The position numbers were made by a program, and so were the translations under genes. A DNA stretch of 64,000 bases from Nemertoderma westbladi (lineage: Eukaryota; Animalia; Xenacoelomorpha), in NCBI GenBank assembly GCA_032718475.1, contig JAUCBJ010007881.1, positions 19,760 to 83,759 of the forward strand. Direction: 5' to 3'. Under the pieces are notes generated by a model. That model was not told the DNA's origin. It did not search any database and worked only from the letters and a program-made list of their open reading frames with translations. Shown here piece by piece: positions 18,811-60,084 of the stretch. How positions within the stretch are numbered: position 1 is the stretch's first letter; each line of letters opens with the position of its first letter.

Positions 18811-18919
18811 CTAAAAAATAATAATATCACGGAATATGAGGCGATATTACAGTCGGAAATCCAATATACAGCAAAGCACACTGTTCAGGGAACTGATAGC
18901 ACAGATGTAACCAATGACT

Positions 18920-32578: not shown

Positions 32579-32583
32579 ATAGT

Positions 32584-33104
32584 TGTTAGCTTATTCAATA
32601 AAGTTATAAGCCGATAAGCAATATTGGGAGCCACGAGATTGGGCAATTAACCAACTCGTGCCATCCCAATAAGAATGGGAAGGAAGCACACAATGAGGGT
32701 CAGGGGCCAAACCCCTAACCCAGAGAGAATAGGTGGAGTGAATGGGAACACTCCAAAGGGCGCCAACAAGGGTATCAACCAATCAGAGGGGGGAAAGGCA
32801 TCGATTAGGTAGAGTAACAAGGCCAACCGTGCAATATAGCCACTTGGCAGTAATAATACCAATTCAGTTATCTCAGTGCAATACCGGTGCTAGTTTAGGT
32901 TATTACATAGTTTTAGATAGGGAAGGACCGGGACTTTAGTTACCGTATCCCGCCTTCCATATACGACAATACTATATCTATATCTATATCCGCATATCAT
33001 ATTATATACGACAAACAACATCAGAACTCATTCACTCTTTATACACGGCGGGGACGCGTGAACTAAAACCGGATAAACCGGGATCCCTCTTGGATGCCGT
33101 CACA
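32584..33104 (+). repeat. 5' LTR of inner element (521 bp)
   Basis: Matches 46190-46726 except a 16-bp indel and about three substitutions. Confidence 0.97.
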
Positions 33105-33172
33105 GTAACTAAACCAGCTGCCGCCCTAGATAAACTCAATAACCACTAGCCACCGAAATCTGCAGAAGAGAG

Positions 33173-36100
33173 ATGAGTCGGTCAGGTGACACGACACCGA
33201 CGCGGACCCCGGACGAAGAGCTAACGATCCGCGAGGCCGCAACCAGGCGATACAGGCCCACAACGCCGGACCCATCGGTAACGGGTCATCCGGCAGTTCA
33301 GGACGAGGGGGGCCTGGAACCCGAGGTCGAACCGAGAGAAAGAGAGAGCGAGACGGAGGGAGACGGAGACGAGTCGACACGGGACGGGGGTCGACGCACC
33401 GGTGTCGCCGGCCAGCCACAGGCCGAGGGCGACGAGCGGCCTGCCGAAACGGCGACGGTGGGGCCGACGGTGCGGCCCCGGACGCAGAGAGACGAAGGAG
33501 ATATCGGTACCGATGTCGCCGGCCAGCCACAGGCTGAGGGCGACGGACGGCCCGCCGGAACGGCGACGGTGGGGCCGCCGGTATGACGTCGGACCCGGAG
33601 AGACGGACGAAAGATCGGCGACGAGGACGTCGGGGTTTCTGATCGACTCCGACAGGCCTACAACGCGACCCAAAGACTAATAAAGGACGCTAAGAAGGAA
33701 GGGGCGGAGATAGACGAGGTGAGACTGAGGAAACGACTAGGTGAGTCGGATAGACACTTTAATTACCTAATGCGTTTTGGGCAGAGGGAACTAGCCGAGG
33801 AGAGAGCAAAAGGGGTTGCCAGCGAACTGTTTGAACTATGGGAATGTGGGAGTATGGAACCTAGTGTAGCGTCAGTGTACATAGGGCCATACTTGGTCGA
33901 TGCCCGGGGAGTAAAATTAGTGGGTTGGAACAGACCTGAGGAGGGCGAATCCGAGGCTGACCCCGCGGATTCGGTCTCGTCGGTCAGAGGGAGTTCCGGG
34001 AGGAGGGGGAGAGCTAGTAGATCGGGAAGGCGGAGGGAATCCTCCACAACCGATAAGTCTGCTACATCCTCCGCAAAAGAAAGACGGGTGAGAGAGATAG
34101 ACGCTAGGTACCGTCTCAATCTAGCAGTGCAAGGTAATAGAGAAGTAGGTAGACGGCTAGAGGAAGGGAGAGTGCTGCTGGAGAGGGAAATGGCGTCGAT
34201 TGGAGAGATAAGAGAGAGGGCCGAAAGGGCCGTGAGGAGCCTTAGGGAGTATGATGAAATAGAGTTGAAGGAACAAGAAGAGCGTGTGGCGAGAGAGAAA
34301 AGCGAACGCGAGAAGCGTGAAGCGAAGGAGGAAAGTGAACGCAGAGAGCGTGAAGCGAGGGAGGAGAGTGAGCGTAGAGCGCGTGAGGCGAGGCGAAGGG
34401 AGGGGATTAGGAGAGAGATGAAATTGGCCAAGCAGACCGAAAGGGAGGCTATGGATAAAATAGCAAAAGTGGAGCGTGAGCGAAAAGAATTGGAGAAACA
34501 GCGAGACAAACTCGTAGAGTATGAAGCTGTACACACGCGTGAGGTGGAACTGGCGCAGATGGGGGAGTCTGAGAGCGAGGCTGGCTCGAGTATTTTTGAG
34601 GAGCCGGGGGCCGTGGATACATTTATTAATACCCCACTTACAGGGACCGCACGACAGACCCAAAACTGGTGTGACCGTACGGGCGGGGGGGGTAATAATG
34701 ATAATGGTACAGTAGACGTGGTTAATATTAATAGTACCGTATGGGACAATTCTAATCAAACCTTTATTGCAGGAAATACTTTACCTAGTGGTAGTAATTT
34801 AAATTTAAATCAGAACATTCCTAATATTAATGTAGAAAATAATTCTAATATTAATGTAGCTACGCAAAATAATCCAATTAATCAAAGTAATAACCCAAAT
34901 TCGAACTTACAAAATAATTTTAAGTAATGCAATAACACAAAATAATCCAAATAACTTAAATAATTCAGCGAGCCCGAATTTACAAAATAATTCAGATAGT
35001 GTAGTCGCGCAAGATAATTCAAATGATTTTATTCCGAACGAACAAATTAATTCCGTTTCCAATACGGGTGCTATTAATGTAAACACGTCGGGCGTGTATG
35101 GCCAGACAGACGAGGGCCTGGTAGGCCACGTAGTTGGTAGGCAGGGAATAGCTGGGTTAGGTAGACCCGGCGAGGGCCTGGTAGGCCACGTAGTTGGTAG
35201 GCAGGGAGTAGCTGGGTTAGGTAGACCCAGCGAGGGCCTGGTAGGCCACGTAGTTGGTAGGCAGGGAGTGGCTGGGTTAGGTAGACCCAGCGAGGGCCTG
35301 GTAGGCCACATAGTTGGTAGGCAGGGAGTAGAGGGCCTGGTAGGCCACGCAATAGCAGAGGGAGAGGCGGGGGTGAATAGACCCGACCGCGGTAGGGTTG
35401 ATGTGTCGACTGGAGAGGGATATAGTAGCGGGGTGAGGAGTAGCGAAGTTAGATGTGGCGAGTGGGGGGGGGGGGGCTACGAGAACCCCACAACAGCGAG
35501 TTAGCGGCGAAAGGGGGGGCAGAGAGTGTCCCACAGCCGTCAGCGGATAATGCGCGGGCCAAAATAGGTAAACCGCAACAACCGGCGACGGAAAGTAATA
35601 GGGGGATTGCGAGTATCCCCAGCGGCGTGCGACCGAGCAGAGAGAGACAGGTTGACGTCGTAAGAGGGCGGACGAAGCGTCGAGCCCGATCAGAAGAGGG
35701 AAGAAGAACAGTGGGGTTTAACCGGGAGGTCGACGAGAGATCTCACGAGCGGGAATACTCCACTGAAAGGAGAAGAAGAGAAGACAGTAGTAGAGGTATC
35801 GCCGCGAACGATAGAAGAGCGAGGACGGATAGTGAGCCGTCGGTAGTTGAGATGAGAACGGAGAGTCAGTGGGGTCGGACTCCGGGAGATTGCCGTCGCC
35901 CCGGAGAGATGCGACCCGGCGAGGCGCACTACGCGCCGATGGAGGGGTACGCGATGTACCGGTACGAAGACGAGAACAGTAGAGGGGGGGGGTCGAAGAG
36001 AAACTTTCCGATGGAATACACCTATTGATCGAGAATACGGTAGCCGCGGGGAGGATTATTCGAGAAGAATAAACTTCGATCCCGAGCGACACATGCAGAC

Positions 36101-36328
36101 TGTAGGACATACTGTAGGCCTTACTGCACATACCATAGGCCATACTGAGAGAGGCAATGTAGGCGATAGGATGGCGTGGACAACGTGATTAAACCCGGAA
36201 GTCGCGGAATACATACCGGCGAGTAGGCCAGAAGCTGATAGGCCTATACCGGTACCAGCACAGCAGTATGACTACAGCATGCAGGGACATAACATATACC
36301 CAGGGGAGGGGGGAATTATTGCGGATAG
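33173..36328 (+). pseudogene. gag: N-terminal gag region of inner element, interrupted
   Basis: ATG at 33173 shares a frame with 33719-34927 across one TGA (33584). Further frame changes at ~34920 and in poly-G runs (~35465, ~35985), plus stops near 36030-36190. Contains DPADSVSSV, an E/R coiled coil and an Asn-rich tract. Confidence 0.75.
35111..35349 (+). repeat. 60-bp coding tandem repeat (~4 copies) in gag
   Basis: EGLVGHVVGRQGVAGLGRPS repeated. Confidence 0.9.
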
Positions 36329-39300
36329 GTGTATGGGCCCCAACATATTAACATCAACCCCAGTACCAAACATACCGGTGGGGGGGGGGGACAGGGTGAC
36401 ATTCCCCCATCACAATATCAACAATATACCCCGATAGGGGCAAGAACAACGAGACCCTTGGATGAGAATAGGTCGTGTGATACAGACATATGGAGGGGGC
36501 CGCTACCCCCGATGACATACCCAAGTCAGAGAAAGTCAAGAAATAGGACAGACGGAACGCACCAGACAGGAGAAACTATGCAGCACCCATCGAATCCATT
36601 GGAAGCGCAGGCGATGGGGATGGCCACGTTGATCGATGCGTTGAAAACGAGGATCGAGTTACCACCCGTGGAACCATTCAAATTCGATGGGAGCAGGCCG
36701 GAAGAATATCTACAGTTTCGGCGCATGTATAGTAACGAAATACTAACAAAGAACTTGACGCAGGCGGAGTGCCTAAAGTATCTGCAAGTGTACACGGGAG
36801 GCCCAGCATACGACATCGTGAGGCAATATCAAGGAATAGAGGGCGGCTTCACGACAGCATGGCGGGCACTGGATAGGGAATACGGGCACCCGGCCAAGAT
36901 CATCAGGCAGACGCTGAGAGGCATAACATCGGGTGGCCTACAGGATAATCCCGTTAGCATTAAGACGTTCGCTAACAAAGTCGAAAAGGCGCTAATCGTG
37001 CTGAAGACGCTAGACGCGCCGTACGAGCTCAATGCGTCCAACAACATCACCACGATAGCGCAGGCACTACCAAACTGGCTGCGCAACAAGTGGAGAAAAA
37101 TCGCCTTCTCCACTCGAGATAAGAAGGGTGCGGAACCGGGTTTAGAAGAAATGTCAAACTTCTTAAACTACGAGGCTGAACTAATAACTGACCCAGTCTA
37201 TAGCGAAGACAGCCTGGGAAAGGGACCGAAGACAGACTACCATAGACCGAAACCAGAGCACAACACATCGAACGCATTACCGAGACTCAGGCAATCATTG
37301 CCATATGCAGCGACGCAGGGGACTGCAAGTCCACAGCTAGCCGAGGATAAGACAACATCATGGAACGGACAGGGAAACAATAATAACACGAATAAACATA
37401 ACCCCAGTACGTCCAATAGGCAAAACCCAAACAATAAGAATAGTAGGGACTTTGGTACGAACGCAACTGCGATACGCAATGCACTGTATAAAGAGGGCTA
37501 CGACCCAAAGAGCAAATGTCAGCTACACGCAAATGCGCTTCATCAAACTATGAACTGCAGGTACTGGCAGGCGCTACCTAGGCAAGATCAGATAGACTAC
37601 GCGTTCAGCAATAAAATCTGCTCGCGATGTGTAATGAGTGGACATAGAGCAAGGGAGTGCAAGGAGAAGCCAATGAAATTTGGTCAAAGGAGAGGCCAAA
37701 CGATGGCGACGAGCACAGTAGGGGCGAAGAAGAGAGGAACGGTGCTACTTGGAGTAGTACCAGTACGAGTGATCGGGGAAGGCAATCGATCAGTAACAAC
37801 ACTAATGCTGGTTGATAGTGGAGCTGCCTTCACATTAGTCGAGGAATGGGTGGCCGAGGAGATAGGATTGAGAACGAGGCCAAGCAGGATGGCGGTAACA
37901 ACCATCTCTAGCAAAGATGAGATCCTGGAGATGAGAACAGGACGGTGCGCAATTGCAGCAGTGGCACCAGGATGCGACTATGGGGCAACCATCGACCCCA
38001 TTCAAGTGATAGAGTCAATTAATATCAATGCCAGGCGGCCAACCAACATCGAGGTCGAGCAGTATAAATTCCTGGACAACATTGACTTCTCAATCCCAGA
38101 CGTGGACGTTAGGAAGGTATCCATCATAGTAGGTATGGACTGCCCAACGGCCCACGAAAGAATGCAAACGGTCTTCGGCGAAGACAAGCAGAGTGACCCG
38201 GTGGCCATATTAACACCATTCGGGTGGACGCTGAGTGGTCCAATCAAGAGCAAGATACCATTTAGGATGTCGGAGACATCAGGATGCATGTTCGCGGGAA
38301 CAATGCAGGAAATGGGTGACGAGGGAGCAGAGGAGCAGCTCAAAAGACTGCTCAGACAAGATTTCGAGGGACTGAAAGAAACCGGGGTCGGGACCTCGGT
38401 AGAAGACAAGCAGGCTTTACAAAGCGTGGAGGAATCGATGACATGCAATGAGGGGCGGTATACTATAGGAATGGTATGGAAACTACCGAAGATACCGCTG
38501 CCCGACAATAGGGGGATGGTACTCACGAGACTCCGCAAGCTGAAACAAACACTAAAACGGAGCCCCGAGAAGAATGAGTACATCCACAGGACGATTAAGA
38601 AGTACGTCGAGAAAGGATGGGCCGTGGAGTTACCGGTCGACGAGCCGAACACGGATAGGACATATTACCTGCCACTGCACGTGGCTTTAGATCCAAAGAA
38701 AGGTAAACTAAGGATGGTAGTCGACGCATCGGCAAAGACCGACGGAAAGTGCTTAAACGACTACCTGTTAGAAGGCCCAAACATATACAATTCGGGCATA
38801 GAGGTGTTACTTAGATTTAGAAATGGGAAACACGCCTTCACGTGTGACATAGAAGGCATGTTCAACCAAGTCCGTGTAACGGAAGAAGATAGCGACAGTC
38901 AACGCTTCTTATGGTATAACGGCGAGGAAGAACCGTCGATAATACCGGCATATAAGATGGTAGTACAGAACATGGGGGCCAAGTCGTCTTCATTTACGAC
39001 GACTATGGCAGTGAGAGACACAGTAAAGGGGAGGGAAGATAGATACAGCAGTAGGGCCGTCGATATGATTCGACGCGGCTTCTACGTAGACGACGGAATG
39101 GAGTCTGGAAATACGGTTAAGGAGATACTGGATACAGGGCGCGAGGTTCGCGACATCCTAAAAGGATCCGGCTTTAACCTGACCAAATTCCAATCCAGTT
39201 CGGAAGAATTTATCAAAGCCATAGAGGACAGGAAACCAGAATCGACCATGGATAATCCCACAACAGCCAAAGGGCAGGACATGGCGATTAAGAGAACGGA

Positions 39301-41722
39301 ATCCCAGCAGAAGGCATTGGGAATCGTGTGGGATAGAAAGACAGACGAACTGAAGTATCAGCTGAGCCAGGAGGGCGCAGACATCCACACGAAGAGGGGC
39401 TATGTATCGTATATAGCAAGGATATACGATCCCCTAGGCCTAGCATCCCCATTATTAGTCACGGGGAAACAGATACTCAAGAGAGTATACAAATTGAAAG
39501 ATGAGTGGGACGTAGAGGTACCAGAGGAAATCAAGAAACAGTGGAGCAAGTGGACAGGAAACTTGGAGAAGATGGGAACATACAACATGCCAAGGGTGTA
39601 TTTCCCGGATGGGAACATGACGAATCTGGACCTACACATGTTCTCCGACGCGTCGTTGGAAGCGTACGGAGCGGCACTCTACTTAGTACAACGAGAGGGG
39701 GCTCATAAGCCAAGACTAGCCTTTAGTAAAGCAAAGTCAACGCCACCAGATTCAGCATCAGTTCCCAAGTTAGAATTGACAGCTGCGAGACTAGGAGTAA
39801 GAGCCACAGCCTACCTAGTGGATACTATTCCCAACATAGTGGAGACACACTACTGGACGGACTCCATGGTAGTGCTTGGTTGGCTACATAACGAAAGGAC
39901 GAGATACCCGATATTCGTCGCGAATAGAGTGGACGAAATAAGGGCGAGCACAGAACTGGAAAGGTGGCACTACTGCCCAACAGACGAGAACCCAGCGGAC
40001 TTGCTGTCGAGGGGCGTGGAACGCCACACTTTCCTGAAGAAGGAAGTATTGTGGCAACATGGGCCACAATTTCTGAGCGATAGGGAGGCCTGGCCGCCGA
40101 TGAGGAAGGTGGACCCGGGCTCGGAAGTAGTATCAGAAGGAGAAGAGGGAGATTCAGAGGGAGAAGAGATATACTCCCAGATGGTGAGGGAGATTAGGGA
40201 CGTGCAACCAGGACGGGAACTGTGCGATAACCCGACGGATAAACTCCTCAGCTACAGTTCTAGTTGGTATAAGACCAAGAAACTAGTGGCGTACTGGAGA
40301 GCCTTCGGGAATTTCCTTGCGGGAGTCGGCAAGGACAAGAAGATCAGGACAACCATAGATCTGGAAGGAGCGGCCAAGGCAGTGATCCGCTATGAACAAC
40401 GGAAGAACTACGGCGACGAGGTGGAACGCATCGGTAACCAACAGCACCTCCGACGGGACAGCGAGCTGATTACGCTGTCGCCACAACTCAATGACGATGG
40501 GATTCTAGTAATGAATTCTAGGGTGGGATACAACAACAGCATAGTCGTACCACCGAAACCCATCATCATTCCTACAGGATCGCCAATAGTCCACCAGATC
40601 ATATGGGACTCCCACAAATCGATATTACATGGGGGCACCAACCGAACCCTCACAGAGATAAGGAGGACCTATTGGGTCAAACAACTGAGGAAGAAGGTAA
40701 AAGCAGTAGTGGGGCAGTGCCAGACCTGCCGACGAGCGAAGAAGGAGCGAGCTGTACAGGAGATGGCGCCACTACCGGCGAGTAGGGTAAGACAGCACGA
40801 CCCGCCATTTACGCATTGCGGTGTGGACATGTTCGGGCCGATAAAGATCAAAGTGATGCGACACACAGAGAAACGCTACGGCATTATCTTCGTATGCAAC
40901 AATACGCGGGCGGTAGGGATAGAACTCGCCCAAGATGCAACCGCATCAGCGTTCATTAACGCCTTAGAAAGGTTTAGGGACCGCAAAGGTGGGACGATCG
41001 CAGTGATATACAGCAACAACGGCACCAACTTTGTGGGCGCAGAGAGTGAGATGGCAGAGGCCTTGGACATCTTGGAGGGAGAAGAAGTCAAGGCAGCCAT
41101 GAGGAGACGACAAGTAAAGTGGGAGAGAAGGACGCCGTATGCACCACATACACTAGGATGCGTCGAGAGACTGGTGGGCAGTTCAAAGCGTCTAATGACG
41201 AAGCTAATGAACACCCACATGGTCACTGAGGACGTCTTACGGACAGTACTTGCGAAGTGCGAGGGGATCATTAATAGCAGACCGCTATATCCGGAGAATG
41301 ATGACCCTGAGTCACTAGACGTGCTGACGCCTAGCCATTTCCTGATGGAAAGGCCAGTGACCATCGATATGCGGGGTGTAGACCCAGATGACATACACTC
41401 CCGCCAAAGTTGGAAAGTCGCAAAGGCAATAAGCGCAGAGTATTGGAGGAGGTGGGTCGAGGAATACCTACCCACACTCCATAAACGAAGCAAGTGGAGG
41501 AAGTCAAACAGGGAGTTAAGAGAGGGAGATCTCGAAATCGTTACGGATGATACTATCATCAACAACCAATGGCGGTTGGCGAGAGTTGTAGGCACCTACT
41601 CCGACGAGGACGGAAGAGTCCAATCGGTAGAAGTGCGGATAGGTGGAAAGATAGGTGCGAAGGACAGAAAAACCTACAGGAGAGCTGTAGGCAAATGCTG
41701 TCTATTAGAAGGGGCACCTTAG
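36329..41722 (+). CDS. gag-pol: BEL/Pao gag-pol polyprotein (gag core, Zn knuckle, protease, RT, RNase H, integrase)
   Basis: KFDG gag core; CSRCVMSGHRAREC; LVDSGA; CDIEGMFNQV and YVDD; YDPLG; HMFSDAS, PKLEL, YWTDS, ENPADLLSRG; H-x4-H...CQTC; GVDMFGP, SNNGTNF (D>N), ERLV; RAVGKCCLLE. Confidence 0.96.
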   Translation: MYGPQHININPSTKHTGGGGGQGDIPPSQYQQYTPIGARTTRPLDENRSCDTDIWRGPLPPMTYPSQRKSRNRTDGTHQTGETMQHPSNPLEAQAMGMATLIDALKTRIELPPVEPFKFDGSRPEEYLQFRRMYSNEILTKNLTQAECLKYLQVYTGGPAYDIVRQYQGIEGGFTTAWRALDREYGHPAKIIRQTLRGITSGGLQDNPVSIKTFANKVEKALIVLKTLDAPYELNASNNITTIAQALPNWLRNKWRKIAFSTRDKKGAEPGLEEMSNFLNYEAELITDPVYSEDSLGKGPKTDYHRPKPEHNTSNALPRLRQSLPYAATQGTASPQLAEDKTTSWNGQGNNNNTNKHNPSTSNRQNPNNKNSRDFGTNATAIRNALYKEGYDPKSKCQLHANALHQTMNCRYWQALPRQDQIDYAFSNKICSRCVMSGHRARECKEKPMKFGQRRGQTMATSTVGAKKRGTVLLGVVPVRVIGEGNRSVTTLMLVDSGAAFTLVEEWVAEEIGLRTRPSRMAVTTISSKDEILEMRTGRCAIAAVAPGCDYGATIDPIQVIESININARRPTNIEVEQYKFLDNIDFSIPDVDVRKVSIIVGMDCPTAHERMQTVFGEDKQSDPVAILTPFGWTLSGPIKSKIPFRMSETSGCMFAGTMQEMGDEGAEEQLKRLLRQDFEGLKETGVGTSVEDKQALQSVEESMTCNEGRYTIGMVWKLPKIPLPDNRGMVLTRLRKLKQTLKRSPEKNEYIHRTIKKYVEKGWAVELPVDEPNTDRTYYLPLHVALDPKKGKLRMVVDASAKTDGKCLNDYLLEGPNIYNSGIEVLLRFRNGKHAFTCDIEGMFNQVRVTEEDSDSQRFLWYNGEEEPSIIPAYKMVVQNMGAKSSSFTTTMAVRDTVKGREDRYSSRAVDMIRRGFYVDDGMESGNTVKEILDTGREVRDILKGSGFNLTKFQSSSEEFIKAIEDRKPESTMDNPTTAKGQDMAIKRTESQQKALGIVWDRKTDELKYQLSQEGADIHTKRGYVSYIARIYDPLGLASPLLVTGKQILKRVYKLKDEWDVEVPEEIKKQWSKWTGNLEKMGTYNMPRVYFPDGNMTNLDLHMFSDASLEAYGAALYLVQREGAHKPRLAFSKAKSTPPDSASVPKLELTAARLGVRATAYLVDTIPNIVETHYWTDSMVVLGWLHNERTRYPIFVANRVDEIRASTELERWHYCPTDENPADLLSRGVERHTFLKKEVLWQHGPQFLSDREAWPPMRKVDPGSEVVSEGEEGDSEGEEIYSQMVREIRDVQPGRELCDNPTDKLLSYSSSWYKTKKLVAYWRAFGNFLAGVGKDKKIRTTIDLEGAAKAVIRYEQRKNYGDEVERIGNQQHLRRDSELITLSPQLNDDGILVMNSRVGYNNSIVVPPKPIIIPTGSPIVHQIIWDSHKSILHGGTNRTLTEIRRTYWVKQLRKKVKAVVGQCQTCRRAKKERAVQEMAPLPASRVRQHDPPFTHCGVDMFGPIKIKVMRHTEKRYGIIFVCNNTRAVGIELAQDATASAFINALERFRDRKGGTIAVIYSNNGTNFVGAESEMAEALDILEGEEVKAAMRRRQVKWERRTPYAPHTLGCVERLVGSSKRLMTKLMNTHMVTEDVLRTVLAKCEGIINSRPLYPENDDPESLDVLTPSHFLMERPVTIDMRGVDPDDIHSRQSWKVAKAISAEYWRRWVEEYLPTLHKRSKWRKSNRELREGDLEIVTDDTIINNQWRLARVVGTYSDEDGRVQSVEVRIGGKIGAKDRKTYRRAVGKCCLLEGAP

Positions 41723-41849
41723 TAAAGTTACAGAAAAGTTTAGTCGTCCAAGTTTTGGACTGAGGGGGGTGGGATTGAGGGCGAGACGCCCTTCCCACAA
41801 ACAAAATAATAAAATAAAAAAAAATAAAATAGTACATGGTAGGTACGCA

Positions 41850-42450
41850 GTTAGTAGGCAGAGAGTTAGTAAGAAGGTACGTAGTACCTAGTTAGTTAGT
41901 TAGTTAGGAGGTACGTAGTACCGCCAGTTAGAGAGTTAGTTAGAGGGTACGTAAGTACCGTTAGTTAGTTAGTTAGTTAGTTAGGAGCTACGTAGTACCG
42001 CCAGTTAGAGAGTTAGTTAGAGGGTACGTAAGTACCGTTAGTTAGTCAGAGAGTTAGAGGGTACGTAGTACCGCTAGTTAGTTAGAGTTAGAGGGTACGT
42101 AGTACTGATAGTTAGTTAGAGAGTTAGAGGGTACGTAAGTACCGCTAGTTAGTCAGAGAGTTAGAGGGTACGTAAGTACCGCTAGTTAGTTAGAGAGTTA
42201 GAGGGTACGTAGTACCGATAGTTAGTTAGAGAGTTAGAGGGTACGTAGTACCGATAGTTAGTTAGAGAGTTAGAGGGTACGTAAGTACCGCTAGTTAGTT
42301 GGAGGATTAGAGGGTACGTAAGTACCGCTAGTTAGTTAGAGAGTTAGAGGGTACGTAGTACCGATAGTTAGTTAGAGAGTTAGAGGGTACGTAAGTACCG
42401 TTAGTTAGAAGAGTTAGAGTTAGAGGGTACGTAGTACCGTTAGTTAGAAG
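41850..42450 (+). repeat. ~36-40 bp tandem array, ~16 units, each with hairpin GGTAC-GTA(A)-GTACC
   Basis: Unit approximately GTTAGTTAGAGAGTTAGAG-GGTACGTAGTACC-GCTA, between pol and the extra ORF. Confidence 0.92.
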
Positions 42451-42934
42451 AGAGAGAGTAAGAGGTAAAAGGGGATATAGATATAGGTATTAGTTAGCAG
42501 TTAGTAGAGAGAGGGGGGCATATGAGTACAGCTGGATAAATCGTGTGGCCACACGACGCATACTGCTGTACTGCATAGACCCACAGAGTAGGCCAGAATG
42601 TGGATTAGAGAATAGAATAATCCATAGGCAGTAGTAAGTAGTAGGACAGTAGAATCAAAGTAAATGGATAAATAAATAGAATAGGGCTGAAAGTTGTAAA
42701 ATAGTGGCAACATAAGGGAAGTTATTCTAGAACATAATAAAAGTAACGGACAGAAATTGTAAATTACGCTCATTTACTAGCTTCAAAATTAATTAGGAAT
42801 AATTTAGGTTAAAAGGCGCAGTTAAGTAGGAAATAGGCCATTATCGAACTGTACAGAACATCCTAGATACATCACTCATCTGTATTGCGCCTTGGTAAGG
42901 CACCACCTTGCAGGTGAGCGAGTGAACGTTCGGA

Positions 42935-45484
42935 ATGGCGAGTAAGTTGATCAGAAAGAGAAAGGCGGAGTAAGGAGGAAAGGAGATACTGGTGGATTTC
43001 ACCGAGAGGCATCCGGAAGAGAAGACGAGAGGATACTACGAGAGGTTGGAAAGGGGTCACGCGGCACGAGCGCTGCAGGATCACTTCCGGGAGGCGCACG
43101 AACAGCGGCTGGTCGGGACCTACGGGACCCCGTCGCTGGACAACGCGATCTTCCAACACTTCCACTACGTGGTGAAAGGGGACGAGGCGAAGTTCGGGAT
43201 TCCGAAATACCCGAGGGAATCACCGAGGAAGGACTGGAAGAGATTCATAGAGTCCGTCAACAGTGGAGGATATATGATCCTAGATGACGAGGGAACCGTG
43301 GAAGACGAAGCGGGTTCGAGACGAGGAACGGCAGGGTCGGCCAGGACCATACTCCTACATTTGGCCGCGCCAAATGGGGACATCTTCTTATTCGACCTAG
43401 GGACGTATGGGAAGAAGGACGGGCCGAAATTAGACCGATTACCGAAAGCGGTACAAGTCTTAGTAAGAGAGAAGTCGACGACGAAAGTGGGATCGGCGAT
43501 TCGCGAGGACGCGGAGAGGATCATCGGTCCGGACGCCACCAACCTCCTGGATATGCAGAAAGTCTTTATGGCTATGACGGCACCGGATGGATTGGGGGTA
43601 GTCGAAAACGCAGGCCAATGCGGGGCGGTGGCGATGGACCAATTATTGGGGCTCGTATGCCACAAACCGATGGACTGGGGGAAGTTTAGGGAAGAATACG
43701 GAGCAGAACCAGCGAACTCGCTAAAGTGGGGAGCGAGACAGGGAAAGCAGGAGGTATATCAGTTCCGCAGGGGAGCGATAAAGGTATATCAGAAGCGATA
43801 TATCCTGCAGGAGGACTGGATGATGATAAGTTTGCTTAACTTATTCATGACCGTGATTATCGAGAGGGAACCAGGGGCATTTCTGTTATCGGGATCACCC
43901 CTAAGCTACAGGAGAGCCTTTAAAGTGGCCTTTGACGGTCTGGTAGACCACCCGGGGCTGAAGGGCGAGTCGGTGTACTACAACAGCCGACATCTGGTAG
44001 ACGGGGAGACAGATACACCGTATCAGAGATGGGAGCAGCTAGAGACGGATAGACGAGAAGCAAAGCGACTGGAAGAAGTCGCTAGACGGGAGAGGATAGA
44101 AGCAGAGGAGAGGGAAGAGGAGGCCAGGACACAGAGTTACGGCTTCGAGGAACAGGCGGGCCTAGACGAACTTCATTGGACTTCGTCAGGGAGTTCGGGG
44201 GAGTCTCTAGGGCGAGAATTGGGATGGACGGTGGGATCGCCGAAACAGTCGACGTCGGGGTTGCAAACGATGCCCATACCAGCGGGCGCCGAGGGCGACC
44301 AACCGCCAAGGAAATTAAGGGAGCTAGAGGGATGGAGAGCTACGGGCGAGAGCCAAGGCGGGAAGGGACATAGTGGATCCATCGGGATACCGGGATTGGA
44401 GACACTACCAGAAGAGGAGGACGACGACGACGAGTTCGGAGAGATGCCGCCCATCGAGAGGATAGGCCACTCGGACACGGACTGGGTTGGCGGAAGGGTG
44501 GTGACGGCCAGTGGGGCAAGGGCCTTCTGGAACAGATCCGGCAAGCGGACCTGGGTGCACGAGGAGCCGGCGATGGATTTCGCGGGGAGCACCATCAGGT
44601 TGGGCGAGCAACCGGGGACGGCACCACGGATAGTATTCGGGGAGACGATGCCCGAGAGGGGCAGAGAGATCGACGTAGATAGAGAGACCAATGTAGAGAA
44701 GTTCGCCTACCAGCGACTCCACAGACCGCGGAGATCGCTTGGGACGAAAGACGAGGTGGGACGGGAGACATTGGTACTCGGCTGCGACTACTGTGGGAGA
44801 CAGACCCATCGGGAAAGCAGCTGCCTATACCGGTTCCAAAAGGGAACCTTGTGTCTCTACTGCAGAGAACCAAGCCACAGGATGGTGGCGTGTCCACGGT
44901 TGCATAACCGATGTCCAAAGTGCCACTTTCGGGGACACTACGGACGCGAGTGCGACTGGATGAACGACGAGGAGAAGTTCACAAGATTCGAGGAGTGGGC
45001 CGACGTCGGGGCCATGATGCGCCAGTGCATGAAGGCCCAGGAGTTCAAGTGGGGTTTCTTCCTTATCAATCAGGAGACTCACATGGAAATCATAAAGCGG
45101 AGGCTACCGTTTACCTACCAAGAGGTAGCAACGGCGGCGTCGTACGCTGGAGTGATGAACACGCAAAGGTATCTGGACAGGTGGACGCCGGAGAACCGAA
45201 GGGAGTTTAGGGATTTCTTGGCGGAGCACGTACCAAAGGCAATGAAAATGATCCTATGGGACGCCACTAGAGGGAGACAACCGGGCCACTCTGAGGGGCC
45301 ACCGGCGAAGCGATATCGGGCACTAATAACACCAGCGCCCAAGGAGCCAACGACCGGGATCAGCAAGGAAGTGGCGGCGAAGGTCCGAAAGCAGAAAGCG
45401 GATGATGCCAGAGGGACGGTGATAACCAAGAAACGACCCAGGGAAGAGGATGCCAGGGGGAACTACCCCCGGAGGAACAGATAG
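42935..45484 (+). CDS. Accessory protein: DEDDy (WRN/EXD/mut-7-like) 3'-5' exonuclease domain plus three CCHC zinc knuckles
   Basis: ExoI-like YMILDDEG; ILLHLAAPNGDIFLFDL; LPKAVQVLVREKSTTKVGSAIREDAERI (ExoII); LLDMQ; ExoIII-like QKRYILQED; CDYCGRQTHRESSC, CLYCREPSHRMVAC, CPKCHFRGHYGREC. The in-frame ATG at 42935 is separated from the 830-aa frame by one TAA (42971-42973). Confidence 0.75.
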
Positions 45485-46189
45485 GTTCCCAGAGTCGAGG
45501 GAGAGAGACTGGGACTTGGACGTGGTACGCCTGGAAGGCGCTGCGTGGGATGTACGAACTATTAAGTACAAATTTAATTAATGCAAAATAATCATATAAG
45601 TGCAATTTGTATGTACGTACGTAGTAATTAGTAATCTATAAATATATACGTTCGGAGTGAGTACTATAGTCATACAACCTTTCTCAATTAGCTACTGGGA
45701 CTGGGGGATAACTGACTATGGCACTATGGACGAGACACCAGACAATTTCACACTTCTTGAGTGCGACGGCACGAGAGGGGGGGGAGATTCGTCAGAAGAG
45801 AAGAGACAGCCGAAGTGAGGTTGAGGGACGGAATAGTGCGGAGTGCGGAGAGAGTGCGGACGCAATTCTAGTGTGGGGGGGGAGAATAAGAGGCTGAGTG
45901 AGGGACGAGGAGGTCCGAGTGTGAGAGAGTTAGGGTGAGAGTGAAGAAGAGATAGGGCGGAAGTGTTGGGGAAACAAAAGTTACGTGAGAGGTGAGCGCG
46001 ATCGGCCCGACATGAGACGCCAGGCACACAGGGTAGCGTTATCATACCCATAGGGGGCGGCCTGGAAAGCCGGCTCCGAGAGAAAAGAATTCCACCCCAC
46101 ACCCGATACTAGATCGGGATCCAGCGGGATTGTAGCGCACTTTTTTGGTTGATGCTATCTTCTTACCGGGAAGATAGCATGGGGGGGAG

Positions 46190-46726
46190 TGTTAGCTTAT
46201 TCAATCCCGCTAACACCCCATAAAGTTATAAGCCGATAAGCAATATTGGGAGCCACGAGATTGGGCAATTAACCAACTCGTGCCATCCCAATAAGAATGG
46301 GAAGGAAGCACACAATGAGGGTCAGGGGCCAAACCCCTAACCCAGAGAGAATAGGTGGAGTGAACGGGAACACTCCAAAGGGCGCCAACAAGGGTATCAA
46401 CCAATCAGAGGGGGAAAAGGCATCGATTAGGTAGAGTAACAAGGCCAACCGTGCAATATAGCCACTTGGCAGTAATAATACCAATTCAGTTATCTCAGTG
46501 CAATACCGGTGCTAGTTTAGGTTATTACATAGTTTTAGATAGGGAAGGACCGGGACTTTAGTTACCGTATCCCGCCTTCCATATACGACAATACTATATC
46601 TATATCTATATCCGCATATCATATTATATACGACAAACAACATCAGAACTCATTCACTCTTTATACACGGCGGGGACGCGTGAACTAAAACCGGATAAAC
46701 CGGGATCCCTCTTGGATCCCGTCACA
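46190..46726 (+). repeat. 3' LTR of inner element (537 bp)
   Basis: Follows the PPT; ends GTCACA before TSD ATAGT. Confidence 0.97.
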
Positions 46727-47709
46727 ATAGTCCGACAGATAGATGTCAATAGCATCCTTCTTCTGAGGTTTTTCGGATGTAGCTTCGCCTTCCACTTGAG
46801 AAAAGGTAGTGTCTGTTGATTCTCCATGGGTCGAGCGCTCAGTTAGCTGAACTTTCCATTGTGTCGTTCCCTGGACTTTAAGACTCACCCGTTGGAACCA
46901 AGTCTTTACGGCAACTTGCAACGATGTGTCTTGCTTCTCTTCGAGGCTTCCTCAAAGGCTGAAAGGATTAGTCTGATCCGTAAGATTCGTTCTCGAACTT
47001 GATAAAGCAGCTCTCCCTGCTCTTGAGGTCCTTGACGTTGTTGAAACAGGTGTTCCTCTAATCGCTCCAAATAGCTGAAGAATCCCTGGACATATCCTGC
47101 TGCCGACCTCTTCCATACAGCTGGATTTCGAGTGTCCCTTACTACTCCCATCCTGTATAAGTCTTCCCAGGCAGCTTCCGATAAGTTGAACGGGAGTCCG
47201 GGTCCTGGGAAGTTCCGTTGCGTCTCGACAATAGACCTCAGTTCCTCCATCGTATATCCCGCATAACTGTCCCTGGTTGATCGCTTACTTCTCGCCCAAT
47301 CGATTTGATGTTCTTCCACAGCGATCAATACTCTAGTGAGTACGGCCCCAGGAAGAATTAGAAGTGGAACCGGATAAACCGCTTCTGCCATCCTTGCTCC
47401 GATTTCGGGTGTCAACTCTACAGTGTCTGAACTACTGGAGTTATCGGGCTGTTGAGAAATAAGTTCTCGGTTCAGGTGCTGCTGCTGTTTAACAGCTGCC
47501 TCTTGGTCTCGCTTGACTTGAGCCCTAGTGCCTATAATAGACCTATGGTGCTTTACTAGCCTAGGGTCTGACACTACTACTGTAGGGATGACCTTTCTTA
47601 CAGTAGGAGGGGACTTGGACTTTGGTCTCAGATGTTCTATACTCTTATCTGAGTCGCAGACTGTTCTTTCTAGGAGACTATCTGACAGTGTTTGCTTTGT
47701 ATCAGCCAT
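46727..47709 (-). pseudogene. gag: 5' part of outer element gag
   Basis: MADTKQ... ORF with a frameshift near 46920. Removing the inner element restores the reading ...IYLSDY|QRFIGDKELRRR... into 32578. Confidence 0.8.
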
Positions 47710-47845
47710 GATTTATTTTACAGTTGAATGCCTATTACTATAACGACAGTTAAAGCAAGTCTAGTAATTCAGTATCAACTGTAAGCCTAGTAATTAATTA
47801 CCGATACCGTTACTCAGTGTAACGTGATATATATATAATATATTA

Positions 47846-49655: not shown

Positions 49656-50819
49656 TGTTCGCGCTTTTAGACCTTTAGCAGTTTAACCTGCCAATTTTAG
49701 TTGTCCTCTTGTTTATAAATCGACTTTAGCCTATATCGATTATTTAGTGTACTGAAGTTACATTAGCCGAAGCCAGTCTGTGCGCGATCATTCACCCACA
49801 GTTAAGGGAGACTGGATTCGGGTGCTTTGAAAGTTATTGCAATGTAGACCTACTGTATTATTCGATTGATCGTTACTATATAATCTCTGACAATATATTT
49901 ATTTTCGGGGAAATATTAACAGTTCCTTTAGGACGTGGCACTTTAAGTATAAAAACAGAGTTATGATTTGGACTAATCACAACGAGATGGCCACAGAGTT
50001 TCGTAAATAGCGCATTCTTTAGGAGATGCTTTATTATCTGTCACACTACTTCACACGACTTCACACTACTTCGCACTGATCTGCCGACCGTCAATGAATT
50101 TGATCATATATAAGGAGGATCGCAACTGACACATGTATTGATTATGAAATAGCATTTAATTCACACAAAAACCACTATAATGTAAGTCGCAATTGCTACC
50201 GGTAACCTGTTCCTCTTACCTTCAGTAATCAAGAAGATTGGGGGTTTTATGATTATTTATCGGTATTCTCCAAATATAACAACATATCCATCAATATAAC
50301 AACAATTAATAACAGACCGTAAACAGAAGTAAAATAATGCGGTGAACAGTCAGTATGTGTTACATAATGCAGTTATGAAATGTGTATCCAAGTAAGGTAG
50401 TTAGTTGAATTGAATTGAGTATGATCAGGTGTGAGCCGGTGCTCCAGGATAATAGATTTACATTCTTATAATCAAAGAAATCTAATGTTTAGGCCAAAGT
50501 CTGAAACTTCCAAAACAGAAGTACAGAAGATTCCAAGCCGGTTCTGAGGCTCAGAAAGGTAAACAAAGACCGTAATGCATTGCGCGGGTTTCCATAGGCC
50601 CCTGTCCAACATAAAGTGAAAATCGCTCTGATTGGCTGAATAGGCAGAACAAAGAGGTTCCACGTCTACAGGAAATCAGCTGACAGATTTCGTCATCTGA
50701 GCTCCAATCTTTTAGAGTATTATGGGCATTGCGGCAAAAATGACTTGTTATGTCCGCAAAAGCACCTACACTGCGCATTGCGGGAAAAATGACTTGTTAT
50801 GTCCGCAAAAGCTTTTACA
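49656..50819 (-). repeat. 5' LTR of outer element
   Basis: Direct repeat of 23183-24352 with scattered substitutions and small indels; followed by TSD AGCCG. Confidence 0.95.
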
Positions 50820-52120
50820 AGCCGTAACGCTTCAAGTAGCCGCAAAGTGACTTTTAGAGTACGAACTTAACGCGACTTGGAAAGTCGCGTTACGGCCACT
50901 TTCCCAAAAAATTAGCCGTAGCGTGACATTAGCCGTATACCAAGTGTATAGTAACTCCATACGCATGCGTATGTCTATTGTTATAATCTGGCGACTTATT
51001 TTTATTGCGGTCTAACCCACAACTATCTCGTACTCATTTAGCCACTATTATATTCCCGTTCACTTCACATCCAACGGAGAGTGGTAAACTACTGTACATG
51101 TTGACAGGGGAGTTTGGTTCCAATAGTTAGTCTACTGTACCGGTATTGAAGCGGTATTCATGCGGTACACTACCGCTGAGCCTTTTAGCGGTAGCCCGTT
51201 CACACCCAACGGTATCGCGGTAACTGTTGGTCCATTTGTTCACAGTTAACTTAACAGTCTAGAAAGACATTTTATTAACATTATTTCAATGGGCAGCGGT
51301 AAACAGCGCGGTGTACCGTTCCGTGGAGTGCGAACACACCTTTAAGTTTGCAAGACAGAGATGCGCCCTAGCTAGTCCCTTTAAAGCATTCGTGCCGAAT
51401 CGAAAACTACCCTGATCGCCATGCAGGGATCGAACCCACTATTTATTTATATCAAAATTGTGAGAACATCACAAAAAACACCTGTTGTAATCGACATACC
51501 ATTGTGATATAAAGGGCTCCTGGAATAGGAGGTAATGGGGGGGGGGGGGGGGGGTAATCGTAATGAAATTAAAATGTATCCCTCTCCAGGGGAAATTCGA
51601 CTGAGATACTACAAGTATGTCCTGAATAAATTCCATATTCTAGAAGTCCTTGCTGTATGCTGTAGCTATAGGACGTAACCTGTTAGGCGGAAGGCAACCA
51701 TATAAATTTCACTTGAAAATATAAATTCGAATTATTTATAATTATTATAATTAATTATTATTCTAATTAAATCCACTCCACATATTTGTGTTATATAGTA
51801 CTCGTGAAATACGATTCTAATTGGTAAATTGGTAAATATTGTTTTTAAAAATTATAAACTTCAGTTTAACCTCCAGGAATATACCCCAGGTTATAAAATG
51901 TTCATTGATGACAATAAGTCGACATGTTAACATTAAGCTTACATATTGTACTGCAAATAAAGTAATTTATTTACCGTCACATCCCTCGTTCTATCTTATT
52001 GATCTCGCTCCCTGCGCTCGGTCGGTAAATAAGTGCAATGTGCTGTAAATTATGGATATTTTATTTACAGTACAATCAACTTCAACCCCAATTTATTTAG
52101 TTGTTTTTATAGGATTCATC

Positions 52121-53510
52121 TTCATGGATATTACTCCATTCATGGATATTACTCCATTCATGGATATTACTCCATTCATGGATATTACTCCATTCATGGA
52201 TATTACTCCATTCATGGATATTACTCCATTCATGGATATTACTCCATTCATGGATATTACTCCATTCATGGATATTACTCCATTCATGGATATTACTCCA
52301 TTCATGGATATTACTCCATTCATGGATATTACTCCATTCATGGATATTACTCCATTCATGGATATTACTCCATTCATGGATATTACTCCATTCATGGATA
52401 TTACTCCATTCATGGATATTACTCCATTCATGGATATTACTCCATTCATGGATATTACTCCATTCATGGATATTACTCCATTCATGGATATTACTCCATT
52501 CATGGATATTACTCCATTCATGGATATTACTCCATTCATGGATATTACTCCATTCATGGATATTACTCCATTCATGGATATTACTCCATTCATGGATATT
52601 ACTCCATTCATGGATATTACTCCATTCATGGATATTACTCCATTCATGGATATTACTCCATTCATGGATATTACTCCATTCATGGATATTACTCCGTTCA
52701 TGGATATTACTCCGTTCATGGATATTACTCCATTCATGGATATTACTCCATTCATGGATATTACTCCATTCATGGATATTACTCCATTCATGGATATTAC
52801 TCCATTCATGGATATTACTCCATTCATGGATATTACTCCATTCATGGATATTACTCCATTCATGGATATTACTCCATTCATGGATATTACTCCATTCATG
52901 GATATTACTCCATTCATGGATATTACTCCGTTCATGGATATTACTCCATTCATGGATATTACTCCATTCATGGATATTACTCCATTCATGGATATTACTC
53001 CATTCATGGATATTACTCCATTCATGGATATTACTCCATTCATGGATATTACTCCATTCATGGATATTACTCCATTCATGGATATTACTCCATTCATGGA
53101 TATTACTCCATTCATGGATATTACTCCGTTCATGGATATTACTCCATTCATGGATATTACTCCATTCATGGATATTACTCCATTCATGGATATTACTCCA
53201 TTCATGGATATTACTCCATTCATGGATATTACTCCATTCATGGATATTACTCCATTCATGGATATTACTCCATTCATGGATATTACTCCATTCATGGATA
53301 TTACTCCATTCATGGATATTACTCCATTCATGGATATTACTCCATTCATGGATATTACTCCATTCATGGATATTACTCCATTCATGGATATTACTCCATT
53401 CATGGATATTACTCCATTCATGGATATTACTCCATTCATGGATATTACTCCATTCATGGATATTACTCCATTCATGGATATTACTCCATTCATGGATATT
53501 ACTCCGTTCA
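52121..53510. repeat. 18-bp minisatellite (TTCATGGATATTACTCCA)n, ~77 copies
   Basis: Direct reading. Confidence 0.97.
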
Positions 53511-54840
53511 TTACGTTGTTAACATAACTAACCCTTTAGGAAAATCCGAAGTACAGCATACTGCCACCACTTATAAGGGTGTAGGTGAGGTGTAAAACGT
53601 TACATTTGATTTACAATGACATAACACATATTTAATATATTTTAACAATATTTATTTCAGATATTAGGAGAAGAAGTACAACGAAAATGAAGTTGAAAAA
53701 CACAAGACAACAAGACTCGACTCTACAAAGAATATAAAACTGCGTCCATACAAAACTTCTACAAAATAACATTATATAAATACAGAGTAATACAATATTG
53801 GGTCGTCAATATATATATAATCATACAAAATAAAATAATCTTATACTAATAATAATTTATTATGACCTGTAAAACAATTGAATTAATTAACTGTTGACTT
53901 CTGGTTAATTTTAAGTCTTAATTAAATAAACGTTGAAATGTTTACTCGCAAACAACTCACACAAGTTTTTTGTGTAAAATTAACCAACTTTGAACACGTC
54001 ACCCATGCAGCAGTCTGTCACTGGGTCTCTTTTACCAGAGGCTGATAGTCAGTCTAGGAGCGAGTGTAGGCCTACTGATACACTCTAAATGTTAGGTGGA
54101 CAGAATTTAAAGAGGTGCCGGGTGAGATAGGGTTGAATTGTAGAAGAGGTAAAGTAGTTGGTAGATGGAAGAACCTCTAATATTCCATTCAAAAATATTA
54201 ATTTCTTTACATCATAACGCGCTTTAGCCCTTATAAGTATAAAGTATAATCGTTTAATAGTAAGGTAATGAAGAAAAGAAGTGTCATTGCTAGGTTACGG
54301 CGTATGAAGAACAAACTTTTATTCATAAATTCGTACATTGTTTCTCAACGATGGAGATGTATTTATATAGGCAGAAATCTGTCAACCCTGATCTCTCGTT
54401 CTAAACGAATGCTCTTGCTCAGTTACTACCAGCTGACATCCAAATGTAAAAGCGATGCGAAACAAAGTCAATATCCTAGACCTTCCTGATTAATCCAGTC
54501 GAGTACGAACTCGATTCGGCATGCTAGGAAGTAGTCGAAGTGTAAATTTTATACCTAAAATTTCAACAATATTGTGACTCTATAACAATTGTAGTTGGCC
54601 TCCTCTCTGGTCAGGAACGACAGCCAAAACAAGTTAAGAAACTAAAATATCGCCATACCTTAACGTAAGTATCAGTTGACTGCTGCCCGTTGCTCATTGG
54701 TTATACATATCTGTGCTATCACCAGTACCCTAGCCTTAGTATATTCGATTTTTAGTGAATCATGATTCTTTACTTAACAATTAACAAAATAAGTACAACT
54801 AATTACTGTAACTAAATACGACCAAGTTTTTCACATTAAA

Positions 54841-55194
54841 TTAAACTGTTGAATTAGGATGAGAGGTGTATTTCGGTACTCCATCATATTTCATGAAGGT
54901 TACATCCTGATTAGTTAGGAATGTATTCCTTTGGTTGGTATAGTTCGCTACATCCGTATAACTGTGACTGGTAGAAGAATCCATCGACGGCTGCATTGAG
55001 ATGTTTCCCGTAGAGAGGTTAGGGGCTGACATTGCCAGATACTGGGAGAATGCCGGTTCACATGTAACTGGTGTCACATCCATGGGAAGCGGAACTACGA
55101 GCGAATCTTGTTTCCTTTGTTTCTGTTTTGAATGAATTTTGGTATGTCTTTTTTTCTCGTCTGATCGCGCAAACTTCCTTCCACATGTTTCGCA
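54841..55194 (-). CDS. egr: EGR-family transcription factor, exon 3
   Basis: TTTTAG|TGC acceptor, phase 0; third finger [21 protein letters not shown], then a Ser/Thr-rich tail to TAA. Confidence 0.93.
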
Positions 55195-55486
55195 CTAAAA
55201 CATAATAATATCACGGAATATGAGGCGATATTATAGTCGGAAATCTAATATACAGCAAAGCACACTGTTCAGGGTACTGATAGCACAGATGTAACCAATG
55301 ACTGACTGTTGATTCTCACCTGACCTTAGAGAAACAAATATCACTAACGGTGGCCCGCTCTTGATTTTTCCACCTTTGGAATATTTCAAAGATCAAGAGA
55401 TATTTATCTGGTAAGATTTCGAAATGACAATTCATTCCCTAATAACTAGTAAACTGGACAAATACGGATTACCAAACAAATCTCTA

Positions 55487-55815
55487 AAGGCCATGATACT
55501 CCACAGGAGCGGCGAGCGGCCGCGTCAAGCGGCCACTTTTTAAAAATAGAACACATTACTTTCTATGGGTGTAGATACACCACAAATGGCCGCTGCCGCT
55601 CGCCGCTGCTCTGGGTATTATACCAAAAGTCGCCGTTCACATCGGCCGCTCACATCGGCCGCTCACATCGGCCGCTCACATCGGCCGCTCACATCGGCCG
55701 CTCACATCGGCCGCTCACATCGGCCGCTCACATCGGCCGCTCACATCGGCCGCTCACATCGGCCGCTCGCCCGTCGCCGCGGCCGCTCGCCGCTCCTGTG
55801 GTGTATCATGGTCTT
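55487..55815. mobile_element. MITE (paralog of 19103-19418) within a LINE remnant in egr intron 2
   Basis: Same TIRs; more copies of the 13-bp CACATCGGCCGCT unit. Confidence 0.75.
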
Positions 55816-56349
55816 TAAGAAGCTTCAATATGTTCAGAATAGTGCTGAAAGACTACTGTGTGGTTTCCGTAAACGGGAACGTATAACGCCAGTTAAAAAC
55901 TCCTTCATTGGCTTCCGATTACTCACAGAATTTACTATAAAATTGCGTTATATACGGCAAGCGTTGTTTCTTTTAGCGCTGCACACAAAATAGGGAACGC
56001 CCTGCCTCTAGAAATTTTATCGACTACGTCAATCGATGTAATTAAAAAGAGGTAATTAAAAACAAATTATGTAAGTTTGGAATATCCCTCCTAGTTTTTG
56101 CAGAGAACTCCGTTTATGCAGGTATCACACTCATGTTTTTAACAATTTTTTAATGATTTTTATTTATTGAGCATTATTTATAATAAGTAATCAAACTGAA
56201 CTACAGTAAATTATTTTTTGTGACGCCTAGTTTGGTAATTTATTTTTGTTAGAATTATCAAACCATGCCCATATATAATTATGTTTTTGTTTTTTTGGTA
56301 ACAATTCCGTATAGCATTACATTTTTATAACATTAATTATTGTTACCAT

Positions 56350-58945: not shown

Positions 58946-59142
58946 GAACAAAGTAATTCCTAAGTATCAATAAATATAAATGCGCCACAGATGTAAAAAT
59001 ATGTGATGTAGATAATCCCTAATTCTCCCCCTCCCGCTTAGGAATAAAAATCTATAAGAAATATAAAAATAATTACTTTGATTTTTTATTCAAAAAGCGT
59101 TAAAAAGTGATAATAATCTCCGCCGGTAAGTAAAAATATTTA

Positions 59143-60084
<942 letters not shown>

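Follow-up and report, generated by a model that had tools for sequence, protein, structure and literature searches.

A BEL/Pao element with an additional gene behind pol

The window, that is, the whole 64,000-nucleotide stretch of DNA analysed here, contains an LTR retrotransposon at positions 32584-46726 (Table 1). TG...CA LTRs, a target duplication and a polypurine tract mark it as an LTR element, and a Pao-type pol with the order protease, reverse transcriptase (RT), RNase H and integrase places it in the BEL/Pao group. Pfam matches in the long frame comprise DUF1759, an aspartic protease, RT, Peptidase_A17/RNase H, an integrase zinc finger, integrase and DUF5641, with E-values of 2.7e-40 for PF05380, 4.5e-22 for PF18701 and 9.9e-11 for PF03564. 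Together with the LTRs and the target duplication these domains support the BEL/Pao context in which the first-pass annotation had placed the gene discussed below. The LTRs are 99.2% identical over 510 nt (self-comparison, direct repeat). In relatives gag-pol is a single frame of 2,100-2,400 aa, whereas the gag side of the window copy is split; the window element is a young yet damaged copy. Its gag-side region also contains a 60-nt coding tandem repeat (3.7 copies, 35111-35331), and the length of the 37-nt array behind pol differs among copies, as seen from indels and joints in run contigs.

Table 1. Features of the window element, with P0001 denoting the ORF3 protein
Feature	Position	Strand	Basis or remark
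5' target-site duplication ATAGT	32579..32583	+	sequence
5' LTR, TG...CA, 521 nt	32584..33104	+	self-comparison
Atypical primer-binding region without TGG, self-priming candidate	33105..33113	+	complement to LTR
Gag-side region, divided among several frames in the window copy	33173..36028	+	one gag-pol frame in relatives
BEL/Pao gag-pol frame, 1736 aa	36512..41722	+	Pfam
37-nt repeat array, some 16 tandem copies, within the 1.2 kb between pol and ORF3	41868..42454	+	
ORF3: predicted exonuclease, linker and triple zinc knuckle	42935..45484	+	translation
Predicted DEDDy 3'-5' exonuclease domain, P0001 55-330	43136..43963	+	fold, profiles
Predicted catalytic positions	D104 (43283), E106 (43289), D179 (43508), Y276 (43799), E280 (43811)	+	
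Charged helix and acidic linker, predicted disordered	44021..44782	+	model, alignment
Three CX2CX4HX4C zinc knuckles	44783..44953	+	exact motifs
Helical module particular to the family, following the knuckles (F..xAD.G...R...WGF)	44975..45064	+	alignment, model
Polypurine tract	46181..46189	+	sequence
3' LTR, TG...CA, 537 nt	46190..46726	+	ATAGT at 46727-46731 directly after

Behind pol, within the LTRs and in the same sense as pol, lies a third reading frame, ORF3. It is open from 42974 to 45481, encodes 836 aa (P0001) and ends with a stop at 45482-45484, bearing out the ORF of some 830 aa proposed earlier. The stretch 42935-45484 is not the single open frame it had been taken for, as in the window copy a frame started at the ATG at 42935 runs into a TAA stop at codon 13 (42971-42973). 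The next ATG, at 43274, lies three codons ahead of the first catalytic Asp, and a start there would lose one strand and one helix kept by homologs. Because of this early stop and the late next ATG the window copy is probably disabled, or else the stop is bypassed by splicing, for which acceptor-like and donor-like sites are found in the sequence at 42908-42947. Among the best-supported 40 of 2,281 variant places none falls on the codon-13 stop. Within the window element's own family 12 of the 15 ORF3 variants among these best-supported places, which are not a random sample, are synonymous third-position changes, and at two of the three non-synonymous places the window stands apart from nearly every other contig, which would fit private damage to this copy. 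Contigs of runs X1 and X3 include copies with deletions through the 3' part of ORF3 (44754-45508 and 44947-45507).

ORF3 occupies the place of env. The highest hydropathy of any 19-residue stretch of its protein is 1.32, located within the nuclease core, no signal peptide, membrane segment or fusogen fold was found and the fold matches are to nucleases. This confirms that env features are absent and rules out a reading of ORF3 as an env gene.

The element was inserted into the 5' coding region of another BEL/Pao element, broken and lying on the minus strand (about 28089-32578 and 46727-47712), which has matches to DUF1759, protease and RT and, within the window, none to ORF3. A joint 32578->46727 with five shared letters occurs in contigs of runs X1, X3 and X5; since the insertion target is itself a BEL element, these contigs may be other copies of the target. 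Elsewhere in the window multi-kilobase segments are duplicated at 96-97% likeness (15163-21638 and 50820-57986; 23183-24352 and 49656-50819); they contain numerous inverted repeats along with an 18-nt satellite and are probably another mobile element family. A minus-strand frame at 59140-60084 ends in C2H2 zinc fingers (PF00096, E 1.3e-12) and is probably a host exon.

The predicted exonuclease and the zinc knuckles

As a single sequence P0001 gave no match in Pfam, in PDB sequences or in a word-indexed homolog database, and alignment A1 found none in the word-indexed search either. When residues 60-350 were compared with the ESM Atlas, 25 of 30 matches fell into PF01612-bearing clusters (score 0.94), half of whose members carry PF01612. 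HMMER over 1.84 billion representatives returned 50 proteins at E<=0.001, mainly via the knuckles, and 22 of these, picked by length (446-925 aa range screened), were aligned with P0001; the order nuclease, linker, knuckles is common to all of them. A first family profile matched EXD2 (E 7.6e-9) and, with both of its halves, RNase D of Trypanosoma brucei (E 6e-7), and more weakly WRN, Egalitarian and mut-7; a second profile, built from 44 domains, matched EXD2 at E 4.2e-12. The Pfam cut-off for PF01612 is narrowly missed by the best homolog, P0016 (23.3 bits against 23.6), and P0001 has no match.

The structural model of the domain (pLDDT 85.7, pTM 0.86) has the DnaQ-like alpha/beta fold. In VIA-align, run on the top 1,000 Foldseek matches, it aligns to Nibbler over 202 residues with a Z of 14.5 and an rmsd of 3.2, followed by NrnC (13.9), WRN and the proofreading domain of the apicoplast polymerase (13.3 each), T. 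brucei RNase D (12.8) and Egalitarian (12.7), and EXD1 and mut-7 are among the related matches. In the fold search with the whole protein, matches are mostly due to the nuclease. The ESM Atlas, the EXD2 profile matches, Foldseek and the Nibbler alignment thus support the earlier assignment to the DnaQ/DEDDy fold, and the domain is predicted to be a DEDDy 3'-5' exonuclease. Nibbler, NrnC, T. brucei RNase D, Egalitarian and Rrp6, which are the best structural matches, act on RNA 3' ends or bind RNA. With WRN and proofreading domains within about 1 Z of Nibbler, the modelled fold would be compatible with RNA as well as with DNA as substrate, and as the structural matches are tied within 1 Z no donor gene can be named.

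The ExoI D-x-E and the ExoII D are present in conserved columns (D104, E106, D179). ExoIII reads Y276-x3-E280 in the window. The spacing had been described as one residue off, a reading rejected by the alignment, in which E280 takes the place of the D of a canonical Y-x3-D; the E is shared by five homologs whose ExoI is intact, most others having D.

Beyond the nuclease the protein follows the anticipated plan of an acidic linker and three CCHC knuckles. The linker is predicted with pLDDT below 50 over residues 390-599 and is not conserved in sequence. The knuckles, at residues 604-617, 627-640 and 647-660, are all exact CX2CX4HX4C; in 23 homologs nine Cys and two His ligands are invariant and H612 is nearly so. 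In the helical module that follows, modelled as helices, G694 is invariant and G679 nearly so. One homolog, P0002, combines a degenerate nuclease with a duplicated knuckle-helix module.

Distribution, variation and connection to pol

Does ORF3 occur in other elements? A motif spanning knuckles 2-3, which has one match in the window and none in 100 shuffles, was used to scan metagenome contigs of the JGI and found 120 loci in 26 of 64 parts, from which about 300 are estimated; in viral contigs the scan found no loci. As the scan selects for knuckles, versions without them could not appear. All but two loci (118 of 120) score as members of the ORF3 family; L071 and L014 are under the family threshold and were left out of the tallies. 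Loci L081-L120 span only some 660 nt, and the context counts use the 80 loci with flanks. Where 5 kb or more of sequence precedes ORF3, 31 of 32 family loci have a pol there in the same orientation, and where 3 kb or more does, 38 of 43 have one; the loci without a match are L005, L008, L012, L032 and L052. Among 15 frames scanned, one of which belongs to a downstream element, PF05380 is found in 12 and PF18701 in 14, and the relatives' pols are only 24-34% identical to that of the window. L012, L008, L032 and L072 have no pol match upstream, L012 having 10 kb of upstream sequence and an interrupted frame; these are remnants or stand-alone copies. In L005, L015, L043 and L051 the ORF3 frames are 1,300-1,600 codons from stop to stop, and the nuclease is preceded by a large N-terminal extension of low complexity.

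The nuclease domain varies by lineage, being intact in some, dead yet conserved in others and absent in a few. It was detected in 43 of the 47 loci with room for it and had no match in the other four. In L047 and L059 pol and the knuckles are present and a nuclease was not detected; these two sit behind a deep-branching BEL pol, and together with L061 they show a knuckle-helix module with a long acidic N-terminus and a helical C-terminus in place of a detectable nuclease. The 44 aligned domains divide into 19 with D-E-D-Y-D/E, 17 in which neither ExoI acid is present and eight that are partial, truncated or ambiguous. Pairwise dN/dS (NG86; 17 pairs picked by similarity and sharing members) is 0.04-0.58 for the nuclease in 15 measurable pairs, 13 of them at or below 0.32, and 0.03-0.46 for the knuckle region, where one pair is saturated. 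For seven pairs of dead nucleases the exonuclease values are 0.04-0.52. Active and dead classes are both under purifying selection, which answers the dN/dS question raised by the first-pass annotation.

The same annotation had named a neutral, one-off capture of a host gene as the outcome that would undo its reading. The early stop in the window copy and the fact that P0001 alone has no close homolog would agree with such a capture. Against it stand the 118 of 120 loci that belong to the family, the fixed position behind pol and dN/dS well below 1, and on these grounds neutral capture is rejected as hardly conceivable. Recurrence, position and dN/dS all speak for a maintained element gene, and ORF3 genuinely constitutes a family of accessory genes under selection in BEL/Pao elements.

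Proofreading for the reverse transcriptase had also been suggested as role of the protein. The DnaQ-like fold is that of polymerase proofreading domains, as exemplified by the match to the apicoplast polymerase, and the elements are long (10-14 kb). Yet dead and nuclease-less versions are maintained, 17 of 44 domains remaining under purifying selection without the ExoI acids, and the versions linked to Pol are mostly dead, which weakens this suggestion and makes proofreading quite improbable.

How ORF3 is expressed appears to differ between lineages. Among 37 elements in which a pol end as well as a nuclease is found, 11 have an ORF3 frame that continues from pol over one stop for 400-800 nt, while shuffled spacers predict about 0.5 such continuations, with the reservation that the 11 elements (L007, L021, L029, L031, L034, L065, L066, L068, L069, L076, L080) are related and not independent. 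Their pol stops are all TGA, in ten cases followed by C. UGA-C is a leaky stop context, and the TGA junctions are candidates for programmed read-through. Nine of the 11 belong to the dead class and two (L029, L076) to the active class. In four close relatives (L002, L033, L037, L062) the pol stop is TGA-C and the spacer is interrupted by a stop or a frameshift. P0182 is a stop-free Pol-ORF3 protein of 1928 aa with RNase H, integrase, DUF5641, dead nuclease and knuckles. The remaining 26 of the 37 elements, including that of the window, have no single-stop link; the window junction reads TAG-TAA and leads into the 1.2-kb spacer with the 37-nt array. The in-frame continuation from the C-terminus of the integrase and the P0182 fusion could be taken to mean that ORF3 encodes a factor on the side of the integrase, acting as a read-through tether, in RNA-guided targeting to a site or compartment, or in trimming of cDNA ends before integration. 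The structural matches include Egalitarian, an adaptor in RNA transport, and in the part of the report consulted the DEDDy domains of Dada transposons are proposed to process DNA ends (PMC3706591). Such a role is nevertheless rather unlikely, since 26 of 37 elements have no such link and most fused versions, being without catalytic acids, would be unable to trim DNA.

The first nine nucleotides after the 5' LTR complement LTR positions 32935-32943, such a 9-mer being found in 18 of 10,000 shuffled LTRs, and within 20 nt of this LTR no tRNA-type TGG is present. The primer-complementary arm is part of a hairpin (32935-33066) in which it also folds with 33046-33066. Self-priming as in Tf1 is therefore a candidate mode for the window element, separate from ORF3. 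Primer sites were surveyed at 21 loci, of which five start inside gag-pol and 16 could be scored. At all 16 visible LTR-internal junctions TGG stands just after the LTR, as TGGCGCC in 15 and TGGTGCC in one, and these sites we take to be tRNA-type. A tRNA-type primer site is typical of BEL/Pao elements rather than defining. The coupling of ORF3 to a self-complementary primer site, as envisaged before, thus finds no support in the 16 relatives. The related idea that the ORF3 protein trims the self-primer to a paired 3'-OH could appeal to the missing TGG and the nine complementary bases of the window, but the tRNA-type TGG accompanies active and dead ORF3 alike in the 16 relatives, and self-priming in Tf1 is said to use RNase H alone. 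As a role of the family self-primer trimming is refuted by these relatives, and it is very improbable altogether.

In RT-RNase H trees, which are quick, unrooted and without reference elements of Sinbad, Suzu, Tas, Pao and BEL, ORF3-bearing pols occupy several deep branches, the window pol being a long branch beside elements of fish, urchin, snail, barnacle and anemone (36-40% identity). A single clade of all ORF3 bearers is rejected by an AU test (p 0.004; 26 of 58 rows, quick tree, LG+G4, group named after the first tree had been seen). As the comparison pols are unscored for ORF3 and the trees have no root, both module exchange and an ancient origin with losses would agree with these data.

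Possible function and comparison with known systems

What could such a protein do for a retrotransposon? Knuckles are found in all loci, by construction of the scan, and the nuclease is intact, dead or absent according to lineage, which suggests that the knuckle module is the core of the protein. Moreover, the conservation of dead versions suggests that what all versions have in common is RNA binding, and the 17 of 44 domains without ExoI acids together with the four of 47 loci without a nuclease mean that trimming cannot be universal. The explanation that we consider best, at a probability of roughly 45%, is that the ORF3 protein binds RNA 3' ends and trims them within the ribonucleoprotein of the element. 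Briefly, ORF3 would encode an exonuclease of the RNase D/Nibbler type, as judged from the predicted fold, and three CCHC knuckles that might grip single-stranded RNA and present its 3' end to the nuclease, by analogy with T. brucei RNase D. Trimming of the element's RNA 3' ends could blunt host tailing or small-RNA silencing. Dead versions may retain RNA binding only, in the manner of EXD1 and Maelstrom, which are dead relatives that keep RNA binding (PMC5408684). In one lineage read-through of the stop would tether the protein to Pol and bring it into the particle, while in the window element ORF3 would be made from a message of its own, probably a spliced one. That tailing can restrict a retroelement is indicated by LINE-1, whose reduced retrotransposition accompanies uridylation by TUT4/7 according to the portion of the source consulted (PMC11014359); restriction of LTR elements by tailing was not met in the literature searched. 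Against 3'-end trimming speak the linker of about 250 aa, far longer than that in T. brucei RNase D, the modelled fold, which would suit DNA as well as RNA, the E for D in ExoIII of the window, which might affect activity, and the interruption of the window copy.

Alternatively, the protein may act in trans as silencing suppressor that degrades or over-trims piRNAs or siRNAs, dead versions serving as decoys for partners of the Nibbler/EXD1 type. In favour of this are the top structural match to Nibbler, the relatedness of EXD1 and mut-7 and the maintenance of dead versions by selection, and the idea was already raised for the DEDDy ORF3s of bdelloids (PMC5408684). On the other hand, the Pol fusion (11 of 37 elements and P0182) better fits a role in cis, and dN/dS, albeit as pairwise averages, indicates constraint and not the fast change that an arms race might bring; trans suppression is hence unlikely. 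It could further be imagined that a knuckle-guided exoribonuclease serves a deep, unannotated BEL/Pao group as its own counter-silencing or RNA-guiding machine, has moved between pol lineages and, in one of them, has lost catalysis and turned into an RNA-binding adaptor fused to Pol by programmed UGA read-through. We regard this larger scenario as a tentative possibility.

Juno and Vesta are gypsy-like LTR retrotransposons of bdelloids. DEDDy ORF3s were reported in these and in Terminons (Rodriguez, Kenefick and Arkhipova, 2017; PMC5408684), so that the label of an undescribed system, given to the window gene at first, was too strong; a 2019 opinion article, in the part consulted, describes the DnaQ-like domain as a well-known accessory of LTR elements (PMC6338049). 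Like the window gene, the bdelloid ORF3 encodes an RNase D-like exonuclease in the position of env without transmembrane or env features, is shared between unrelated lineages and has a predicted activity. The hosts there are Juno/Vesta and Penelope-like elements and the motif is DEED, whereas here they are BEL/Pao elements with DEDD or DEDE. No triple CCHC module or read-through was described for bdelloids, both being found here, and the helical module, the active, dead and absent classes and the UGA-C link to pol in one lineage are likewise particular to the present family. Variation in the bdelloid ORF3s is near neutral (env and GDSL were tested), in contrast to the purifying selection found here. 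The two sets are likened by description and fold, not by sequence kinship.

Among cellular proteins T. brucei RNase D (TbRND; PDB 7c42-7c4c) is the one solved DEDD-plus-CCHC protein and, like ORF3, has the exonuclease first and the fingers after it. As far as the consulted text goes, the fingers bind RNA and the enzyme trims U-tails (PMC7797062); it is a mitochondrial enzyme with four fingers, a 28-residue linker and 17% identity to ORF3, and the two architectures are likely convergent. Members of the PF01612 group (Nibbler/mut-7, EXD2, WRN exonuclease, NrnC, Egalitarian, EXD1) share the fold and motifs Exo I-III with a Z of 11.4-14.5, but are host or bacterial genes with 9-15% identity to the ORF3 domain.

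In the literature searched (Repbase, subscription papers and supplements aside) neither an exonuclease ORF3 in BEL/Pao nor a knuckle-linked or read-through form of such an ORF3 was found, and the word exonuclease has no occurrence in PMC3118150, PMC6238403 and PMC13524379. DEDDy ORF3s are thus known from other retrotransposon lineages, and the triple-knuckle form in BEL/Pao elements is apparently new. It adds to BEL/Pao a class of ORF3 that is not env and a candidate recoding signal, and constitutes a protein family missed by Pfam. Element-encoded counter-defence against small-RNA and tailing pathways of animals is rarely documented, and the 2017 report on bdelloids, based on few elements, left the function of DEDDy ORF3 open. 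The present family offers dozens of intact natural variants in active, dead and nuclease-less states and two expression modes, as separate gene and as apparent read-through fusion, which make this function testable by comparison and simple assays.

Two further kinds of element invite comparison, as far as the consulted parts of the reports allow. Env-bearing BEL/Pao elements (roo; Chuviridae-like glycoproteins) likewise have an additional ORF behind pol and ahead of the 3' LTR, which there encodes a fusion glycoprotein (PMC13524379, PMC3118150) and not, as ORF3 does, a protein with nuclease fold and no membrane segment. Dada, as a mobile element with a DnaQ-like (DEDDy) exonuclease, resembles the present elements (PMC3706591, PMC6431247), but is a DNA transposon with the DEDDy domain inside its transposase, unlike the separate ORF3 (PMC3706591).
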